A stretch of DNA of 64,000 nt, taken from the NCBI RefSeq assembly GCF_016026235.1, contig NZ_CP065614.1; one strand, written 5' to 3'. This DNA is from Escherichia coli (GTDB lineage Bacteria; Pseudomonadota; Gammaproteobacteria; Enterobacterales; Enterobacteriaceae). The position numbers were made by a program. This document shows, one piece after another, positions 50,801 to 53,800 of this stretch; the first letter of the stretch is position 1, and each line of letters starts with the position of its first letter.

Positions 50801-53800
50801 GAACATGAAGAGCATGCCAACACCTTTTCCGCGTTCCTTGACCGCCTTTCCGATACCGTCTCTGCACGCAATACCTCCGGATTCCGTGAACAGGTCGCTG
50901 CATGGCTGGAAAAACTCAGTGCCTCTGCGGAGCTTCGACAGCAGTCTTTCGCTGTTGCTGCTGATGCCACTGAGAGCTGTGAGGACCGTGTCGCGCTCAC
51001 ATGGAACAATCTCCGGAAAACCCTCCTGGTCCATCAGGCATCAGAAGGCCTTTTCGATAATGATACCGGCGCTCTGCTCTCCCTGGGCAGGGAAATGTTC
51101 CGCCTCGAAATTCTGGAGGACATTGCCCGGGATAAAGTCAGAACTCTCCATTTTGTGGATGAGATAGAAGTCTACCTGGCCTTCCAGACCATGCTCGCAG
51201 AGAAACTTCAGCTCTCCACTGCCGTGAAGGAAATGCGTTTCTATGGCGTGTCGGGAGTGACAGCAAATGACCTCCGCACTGCCGAAGCCATGGTCAGAAG
51301 CCGTGAAGAGAATGAATTTAAGGACTGGTTCTCCCTCTGGGGACCATGGCATGCTGTACTGAAGCGTACGGAAGCTGACCGCTGGGCGCAGGCAGAAGAG
51401 CAGAAGTATGAGATGCTGGAGAATGAGTACTCTCAGAGGGTGGCTGACCGGCTGAAAGCATCAGGTCTGAGCGGTGATGCGGATGCGGAGAGGGAAGCCG
51501 GTGCACAGGTGATGCGTGAGACTGAACAGCAGATTTACCGTCAGTTGACTGACGAGGTACTGGCCCTGCGATTGTCTGAAAACGGCTCAAATCATATCGC
51601 ATAACCCACTGATAATGTTTACTACCGGATGTAGCTTTTTTCATGCCCGAGATGGTCAGTTAGTTCCGCATTAAGCACCGTTTCGACAGTTAATTTCGTC
51701 TGCATACGGGAAAACTGATTGAGGTCGGCCTCGGTTTTGAGGCCTTTAGCCAGTTCAGCCGCAAGGGCTTTAAGCTTCTTTTCGTCCATAATTTACCTGT
51801 CTCCGTTGTTGGAGTGAACCACGGCAGCCTGGCGGCTGCAAATCGGGGTGTGGCAGAATATGAGCTTTCAGAGTAACCATCCAGAATGAGTTCCCATGTC
51901 ACACAACCTGGAGCACCAGAAAGTCCACACCAGAATGGTGAAAGAGGTTCTGAAATCCGTCGCCAGAGCCAATAATCACCCTTATCCGTCCGTATTTGCA
52001 GACTTTATCGCCGGTCATCCCTCCTGCACGGTCTGTTTCTGGGAAACCTTCCACAAAATGTACCCGGATTCACCGTACGAATACGTCACGTTCTGCCATA
52101 CCTGCCGTCGTTTTGATTTATACGAAACAGAAGCGGAGATGAAGGCGGATGACCCGAAGTGGTGGTGATTTTCAGCCCCGACCGCTGAAACGCCTGTTCA
52201 CAGCCAACCAGTGCTGGACGTCCTTCCTGGATGCGGGCGGTCTGCGCGATATCGGGGTTGAGGCTGTCACCAAAATGCTGGCCTGCGGCACGCGGATACT
52301 GGGCGTGAAGGAATACAACTGCGATAAACCTGACTGCCCCCACGTCAGATACGTCACTAACTCATGCGGCAGCCGTGCCTGCCCGTCCTGCGGAAAAAAG
52401 GCCACAGACCTGTGGATAGCGACACAGCTGAATCGTCTTCCTGACTGCGACTGGGTACACCTGGTCTTCACCCTGCCGGACACGCTGTGGCCGGTGTTCG
52501 AAAGCAACCGGTGGCTGCTGAATGACGTGTGCCGTCTGGCGGTGGAGAATCTGCTGTATGCCGCCCGGAAACGGGGGCAGGAACCCGGTATCTTCTGCGC
52601 CATCCACACGTATGGCCGTCGTCTCAACTGGCATCCGCATGTACATGTGTCTGTAACCTGTGGAGGTCTGAATAAGCATGGTCAGTGGAAAAAGCTGAGC
52701 TTCCTGAAAGACGCGATGCGTTCGCGGTGGATGTGGAATATGCGGCAACGGCTTCTGAAAGCGTGGTCAGAGGGGCTGGCGATGCCGGAGTCGTTGTCAC
52801 ATATCACGACGGAATCACAGAGGAGAAGCCTGGTGCTGAAAGCCGGAGGAAAATACTGGCATGTGTACATGTCGAAAAAAACGGCCGGCGGGAGGAATAC
52901 GGCGCGCTACCTGGGTCGTTATCTGAAGAAGCCGCCGATAGCGGCCTCCCGGCTGGCACATTACAACGGAGGGGCGAGCCTGAGCTTCCGTTACCTGGAC
53001 CACAAAACGGGAGAAACGGCGACGGAAACGCTGACACAGCGTGAGCTGGTCGCGAGGCTGAAACAGCACATCCCGGAGAAGTTTTTTAAGATGGTGAGGT
53101 ACTTCGGGTTCCTTGCCAACCGGGTGTGTGGAGAGAAGCTGCCGCAGGTGTACCGTGCTCTGGGGATGGATAAACCGGAACCAGTGGCGAAAGTGTGCTA
53201 TGCACAAATGGTGAAACAGTTCCTGAGTCGTGACCCGTTCGAATGCGTGCTGTGTGGCGGCCGGATGGTATACCGCCGGGCCATTGCGGGGCTGAATGTG
53301 GAGGGGCTGAAGAAAAACGCGCGGGATATCAGTCTGCTGAGGTATATGCCGGCCTGACACAGGCTAAGTGTGCCCGGGAATCGGTGCAAGTATAAAAAAC
53401 AGCCTGTTGCGGTATAAGAATCGACCATGCAGAGAGAGAAAACACCGGAGTGGAGGGAAAAGCAGAAAAGCTCACGTGGCATAAGGCGTGGACAGCGGTA
53501 TCGTCTGGTTTTTCAATTTCCTATACGTGAACTATGGCTCGCTACGACCTTCCCGATGAGGCATGGACCATCATCAAGCCTCTGTTACCTCCTGAACCCG
53601 CCACACCACGGGCCGGACGCCCATGGGCTGAGCACCGTAAAATCATCAATGGCATGTTCTGGGTGTTATGTTCCGGTGCACCATGGCGCGATTTACCCGA
53701 ACGATATGGGGCATGGAAAACTGTTTATAACCGCTTTAACCGATGGTCAAAGTCAGGCGTGATTAATATTATTTTCAACAGGTTGCTTTCGCTACTTGAT

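Follow-up and report, generated by a model that had tools for sequence, protein, structure and literature searches.

The closest described relatives of the remnant analysed here are insertion sequences of the IS256 family. ISEc39 of E. coli, annotated by PGAP as 'IS256-like element ISEc39 family transposase', is complete at ~1.3 kb, retains its two terminal repeats and encodes a 402-aa transposase; other family members, with intact full-length transposase genes, are carried by a Salmonella Bareilly plasmid and by Y. pestis pFra. We take the Y. pestis element to be IS285; its PGAP label is only 'IS256 family transposase'. In members of the IS256 family, an 8–9 bp target-site duplication flanks the element. 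The second family relevant to this locus is IS91, whose members have terIS upstream and oriIS downstream of tnpA and insert beside a 5′-GTTC or 5′-CTTG tetranucleotide at oriIS; for IS1294, 5′-GTTC is both the target and the terIS cleavage tetranucleotide (PMC13181058).

The 64-kb stretch of DNA analysed here, referred to below as the window, belongs to a Shigella/EIEC invasion plasmid (pINV). Around the remnant (the stub), 341 bases match plasmids of S. dysenteriae ATCC 12021 and EIEC CFSAN029787 at 100 % identity, and the first 284 of these bases are 99.6 % identical in S. flexneri pWR100 and pCP301. The stub and the 3′ end of an ipaH gene are convergent. The name ipaH1.4 is taken from the annotation of identical records, and its product scores 563 bits against NF046045 IpaH_Shig (cutoff 550); two more ipaH genes lie downstream in the window (56932..58629 and 60361..62085). 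The features of the locus are as follows.

49877..51604, plus strand: ipaH1.4, encoding a 575-aa T3SS effector E3 ubiquitin ligase (ORF, NF046045 and annotation).

51590..51635, plus strand: ipaH1.4-specific 3′ end, comprising the last 15 nt of the CDS and a 31-bp flank, with the stub fused at its distal end.

51622..51789, minus strand: 55-codon ORF, stop included in the coordinates, made up of 52 transposase codons and three read-through codons.

51636..51815, minus strand: IS256-family remnant of the ISEc39/IS285-like lineage, IS positions ~46–225 of ~1306 bp.

51816..51819, no strand assigned: GAAC (GTTC on the IS256 sense strand), common to the IS256 leader and the IS91-family terIS end; insertion point.

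51816..53528, plus strand: ISSbo1, an IS91-family element (NF033538, PF04986, PF14319; RefSeq name on identical DNA).

51896..52168, plus strand: 90-aa ORF within ISSbo1.

52149..53357, plus strand: tnpA of ISSbo1, 402 aa.

Two full-length IS256-family transposases, from the Salmonella Bareilly plasmid and Y. pestis pFra, were used as tblastn queries against the whole 64-kb window. One significant match was returned, covering aa 1–52 on 51789..51634 (Salmonella copy: 92 % identity, 48/52, E=2.9e-24; Y. pestis copy: 90 % identity, 47/52, E=4.9e-23); there was no other significant transposase piece in the window, every remaining match having E≥0.5. An earlier note on this DNA had described a 55-codon stub, matching the N-terminus of an IS256 transposase, between the ipaH stop and the IS91 end, and the search bears this out: its sole significant match falls on the stub, which has the ipaH1.4 stop (51604) on one side and the end of the IS91-family element (51816/51820) on the other, and the coordinates given at the time, 51627..51791, denote the same 165 bases as the ORF, 2 nt off. 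The remnant consists of 26 nt of 5′ leader with a native GGAG ribosome-binding site, followed by transposase codons 1–52 from an ATG at 51789. Codons 53–55 (YIR) and the TAG stop come from the ipaH1.4 3′ flank and are non-homologous to the transposase. Against the ISEc39 transposase, 49/52 residues are identical. By homology, these matches establish the stub as a descendant of an IS256-family member.

We also considered that the frame might be open by chance and resemble transposases only by coincidence, given that Pfam and NCBIfam scans of the 55-aa stub alone returned no match. Full-length relatives reach 396–425 bits against NF033543 ('IS256 family transposase'; cutoff 150), and their PF00872 matches have E values of 1e-108 to 1e-118; however, the model matches on these relatives start only at transposase residues 43–44 (NF033543) and 14–15 (PF00872), and no more than ~9 residues of the stub fall within the NF033543 match. 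The stub therefore misses the models because of where the model matches begin, not through lack of homology. The tblastn E value of 2.9e-24 and nucleotide identities of 84–98 % to IS256-family elements over 158–184 bp, untranslated leader included, refute a chance frame, which is almost certainly the wrong reading.

Little of the element remains. Residues 1–52 of ~400 are present, the DDE catalytic region is absent and the rest (~1,080 bp) was not detected in the window by tblastn. Neither terminal inverted repeat is present: DNA homology, counting the shared GAAC, covers 51636..51819, begins at IS position 42 and ends at position 225, with about 30 nt of leader, and the first 41 nt of the relatives, including the left inverted repeat, have no match in the window at up to 3 mismatches. 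Both original IS256 ends are thus gone from the stub, and no sizeable inverted repeat was found around it.

The stub and ISEc39 have the leader, ribosome-binding site and start codon in common and are 87 % identical at the nucleotide level over 51636..51819, but ISEc39 is complete whereas the stub retains ~14 % of such an element. At 87 % identity, the stub is to be regarded as a related isoform rather than as ISEc39 itself. Full-length relatives as a group show 84–90 % BLASTn identity over 51636..51819 (to 51818 for the Y. pestis copy); the Y. pestis pFra and Salmonella Bareilly copies (83.6 % and 89.7 % identity, respectively, over 183–184 bp) differ from the stub in their intact transposase genes and in possessing terminal sequences that are missing from the window. 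The closest DNA relatives found are decayed E. coli copies, themselves truncated pseudogenes, namely a remnant on the E. coli O170:H18 plasmid NZ_CP076707 (97.7 % identity over 51636..51806) and a 158-bp stub carried by numerous E. coli chromosomes (~92–95 % identity; 94.9 % over 51662..51819). Unlike the stub in the window, both retain the left terminal repeat, and their breakpoints differ; the neighbours of these decayed copies are pap/afa fimbrial genes and an hns-like gene. On E. coli chromosome NZ_CM143727 (segment 2459..2659), a stub of the 158-bp type with its left repeat, cut after ~43 codons, adjoins an H-NS family gene, and the same-lineage 158-bp stub accounts for most of the 135 chromosomal places matching stub DNA.

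Beyond the window, plasmid pCP301 carries two or more additional IS256-family fragments. The first, at segment 7379..7436, is a left end of the stub's isoform with an intact terminal repeat (IS positions 1–58) and adjoins the ospD2 stop codon; more divergent N- and C-terminal IS256 pieces, including SF_p0021 'putative transposase', are located at segment 18050..18310 and 18596..18666. The ospD2-side left end was evaluated as the missing half of the stub and rejected: it runs to IS position ~55–58 and overlaps the stub by about 14 bp, and so cannot be its simple other half.

The downstream break lies between 51635 and 51636, where IS position 225 is fused to GCTACATCCGG..., 31 bp past the ipaH1.4 stop; on the stub sense strand, the joint reads AAAAAA/GCTACATCC (the slash marks the joint here and below). 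The 31-mer of ipaH1.4 flank is CCCACTGATAATGTTTACTACCGGATGTAGC. Homology to ipaH7.8, ipaH4.5 and chromosomal ipaH genes ends at or before 51589, and 51590..51635 has no match to other ipaH genes or to IS256 elements. A blastn-short search of the 31-bp flank against the window revealed no IS end or repeat, only chance 8–11-mers, and neither an IS end, a repeat nor clear microhomology was seen at the joint itself. As the flank is unrepeated and without an IS end, we attribute this joint to an unspecified illegitimate recombination or deletion. The suggestion in the earlier note that another IS family once bordered ipaH is supported, with a refinement: IS256-family DNA is indeed joined to the flank, but the joint is an internal breakpoint (~225) and not an IS terminus. 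Since it is an internal point of the IS that adjoins the flank, an IS256 insertion beside ipaH1.4 itself is not demonstrated by the sequence; rather, the make-up of the joint shows IS256-family DNA to have been attached to the ipaH1.4 3′ flank through deletion or rearrangement.

The 3′ ends of ipaH4.5 (62070..62120) and of ipaH2.5 on pCP301 (segment 42875..42950) share the junction GGCC/TGAACCGCCCCGGGAATCC, in which the partner is an IS629-type terminal repeat that is the source of the TGA stop codon. This common junction suggests that a single insertion was copied, through gene conversion or duplication, or else that the site was hit more than once.

On its other side, the stub meets ISSbo1. 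The ISSbo1 transposase is of the HUH/Y2 type with an N-terminal zinc-binding domain (NF033538: 309 bits, cutoff 125; PF04986: E=3.6e-58; PF14319: E=4.8e-22). Its left end, adjoining the stub, reads GAAC-CACGGCAGCCtggcGGCTGC on the plus strand, the terIS end carries the hairpin GCAGCC-tggc-GGCTGC and the oriIS end finishes in ...TTTCCTATACGT. The window has three IS91-family left ends, which start GAAC-CACGGCAGCC and read GAAC-CACGGCAGCCTG[G/A]CGGCTGC, with the hairpin inside, and three right ends, which read ...TTTCCTATACGT; the next four bases after these right ends are GAAC, GTAC and GAAC. ISSbo1 accordingly displays the traits of IS91: its terIS and oriIS ends are different and lack inverted repeats, it has a subterminal palindrome, and a tetranucleotide of the GTTC/CTTG type is found at the terIS end and beside oriIS, in agreement with the published description (PMC13181058).

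At the position of the upstream break, the full-length relatives read GATAT-GTTC-ACTCC (...GATAT-GTTC-ACTCCAAC...), with CTTC in the Y. pestis copy. Because GAAC is common to both elements, bases 51816..51819 can be counted with either the IS256 remnant or ISSbo1. Under the target rules of the IS91 family (PMC13181058), insertion at the leader GTTC should place terIS-GTTC directly before ACTCC when the IS256 sense strand is read. Precisely this joint is observed at the stub, in the correct strand orientation, and the chance of finding GTTC at a random break is about 1/256. We infer that the upstream break of the stub was made by an IS91-family insertion at the leader GTTC.

A simple insertion of this kind would be expected to leave 45 bp of the IS256 left end next to oriIS, but this was not found there: beyond oriIS lies a 5′-truncated IS5-family ISSfl7 in the window and, after CAAG, unrelated DNA in pCP301. 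In the window, the ISSbo1 oriIS end (...TTTCCTATACGT, then GAAC; 53518..53540) is 5 bp from the ATG of the IS5-family ORF of ISSfl7, which thus lacks its own left end and represents another IS-in-IS truncation at GAAC.

Comparison with S. flexneri offers an account of the exchanged flank. The same junction there carries IS1294 (pCP301 segment 3256..4956) where the window has ISSbo1. The two elements have a 28-bp terIS tip and a 1,082-bp tnpA core in common (99.3 % identity) but are unrelated in the ~320 bp between tip and core and in the 3′ ~270 bp including oriIS, and by this pattern the ISSbo1/IS1294-type elements at the junction are evidently mosaics. Further ISSbo1/IS1294-type copies or ends are present in the window at 22770..22954, 25773, 33689, 35752..36060 and 44832..46249; several IS91-family copies in one window provide ample substrate for recombination within pINV. 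The exchanged oriIS flank is most simply explained by recombination between such copies.

One-ended transposition is a weaker alternative for the same observation. Here the stub would be a passenger: an IS91-family element inserted in an IS256 copy elsewhere would have missed terIS and carried ~180 bp with it to ipaH1.4. IS91 and IS1294 are known to miss terIS in 1–14 % of events and then to mobilise terIS-adjacent DNA (PMC13181058). The position of the stub on the terIS side, the lack of an IS256 left end in the oriIS flank and, in pCP301, the presence beside oriIS of CAAG, which is a valid target tetranucleotide but bears no relation to the GTTC of the stub, are all consistent with such an event. 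However, the distal end of the stub, ...AAAAAA/G on the transferred strand, is unlike the GTTC/CTTG-like sites, whose second base is always T (PMC13181058), the window's other ISSbo1 terIS copy (22770) has a different flank, and recombination among IS91-family copies accounts for the mismatched flanks equally well. We therefore consider a passenger origin unlikely. A broader version, in which the IS91 element and the stub arrived together by one-ended rolling-circle transposition and IS91-family elements may have shuffled modules such as ospE-ipaH1.4, is in our judgement quite improbable; were it true, the donor site would survive in the stub as a fossil.

The distribution of the ipaH1.4/stub joint was surveyed using a 91-bp probe (51575..51665) placed across it. 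The probe matched 126 plasmid records, 117 from Shigella (S. flexneri, S. sonnei, S. boydii and S. dysenteriae) and nine from E. coli, with one copy per record, a match that always spans the joint and an identity of at least 99 % in 108/126. Among complete E. coli genomes matching an ipaH 3′-end probe, 7/9 have the junction. No empty site, i.e. an ipaH1.4 flank without the stub, occurs in these collections; with the junction in 126/126 matching plasmid records and no empty site, the joint is an old, fixed scar. Its spread indicates that it is older than the split between the invasion plasmids now carried by EIEC and by the four Shigella species. The ipaH2.5 gene of pCP301 was tried as a proxy for the empty site and proved uninformative, its 3′ end being cut earlier by an IS629-type element. 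In the EIEC pINV records NZ_CP011417.1 and NZ_JBLWKI010000002.1, two places match stub DNA, but the ipaH1.4/stub junction occurs once per record.

Such uniformity could be taken to mean that the bacteria express and retain the 55-residue product, perhaps as an N-terminal fragment that binds DNA or damps transposition. The ORF is intact and retains its ATG and native GGAG ribosome-binding site, translation from read-through transcripts is a slight possibility, pCP301 annotates a CDS, and the junction segment 51575..51665, which includes the 3′ end of the ORF, is at least 99 % identical in 108/126 pINV records. Against this, a scan of 51300..52200 found no sigma-70-like promoter or intrinsic terminator, and the upstream end of the IS is gone. 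The product comprises only 52 of ~400 transposase residues with no overlap with the catalytic core, tblastn found no intact IS256-family copy in the window on which it could act, and RefSeq calls the stub a pseudogene. As for the identity, the compared stretch spans coding and non-coding DNA alike and hence reflects recent common plasmid descent, not selection on the ORF. An expressed and retained product is very improbable. We conclude that the stub ORF is in all likelihood inert and marks only the history of the locus.

The reading that we favour, and consider very probably correct, is that the stub is a non-functional relic produced by an IS91-family insertion upstream and a deletion or illegitimate recombination downstream, with a junction older than the divergence of the pINV plasmids. 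The homology, the two breakpoints, the missing remainder of the element and the fixed junction are demonstrated; the order and mechanisms of these two events we infer as follows. An IS91-family rolling-circle element would first have entered the leader at GTTC, parting the left inverted repeat and any upstream promoter from the transposase gene, and a rearrangement via IS91-family copies would afterwards have removed the left inverted repeat. In the second event, the point after transposase codon 52 would have been joined to the position 31 bp past the ipaH1.4 stop, with the loss of ~1,080 bp including the DDE region. The 55-codon ORF would then be an accident of the fusion.

The stub itself is already known from public annotation and is ordinary. 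In pCP301, where the equivalent of 51622..51789 is at record positions 212967..213134, it appears as CDS SF_p0264 'putative transposase', and RefSeq lists the same bases as pseudogene AA102_RS26120, 'IS256 family transposase; incomplete; missing C-terminus'; unlike the present analysis, these annotations do not give the breakpoints, the GTTC/IS91-family junction or the extent of fixation. We found no paper in the literature that discusses the stub, and one publication implies that pINV has no IS256-family members among its insertion sequences (PMC9241512).

The importance of the stub is small, and the understanding of ipaH1.4 or of pINV is unchanged by it. It adds IS256 to the IS families with traces in the Shigella/EIEC invasion plasmid, and its GTTC break provides a textbook example of IS91-family target choice within another IS. 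The joint between the ipaH1.4 flank and IS256 position 225 is easily scored and, as a marker, could point to shared plasmid ancestry across the four Shigella species and EIEC.
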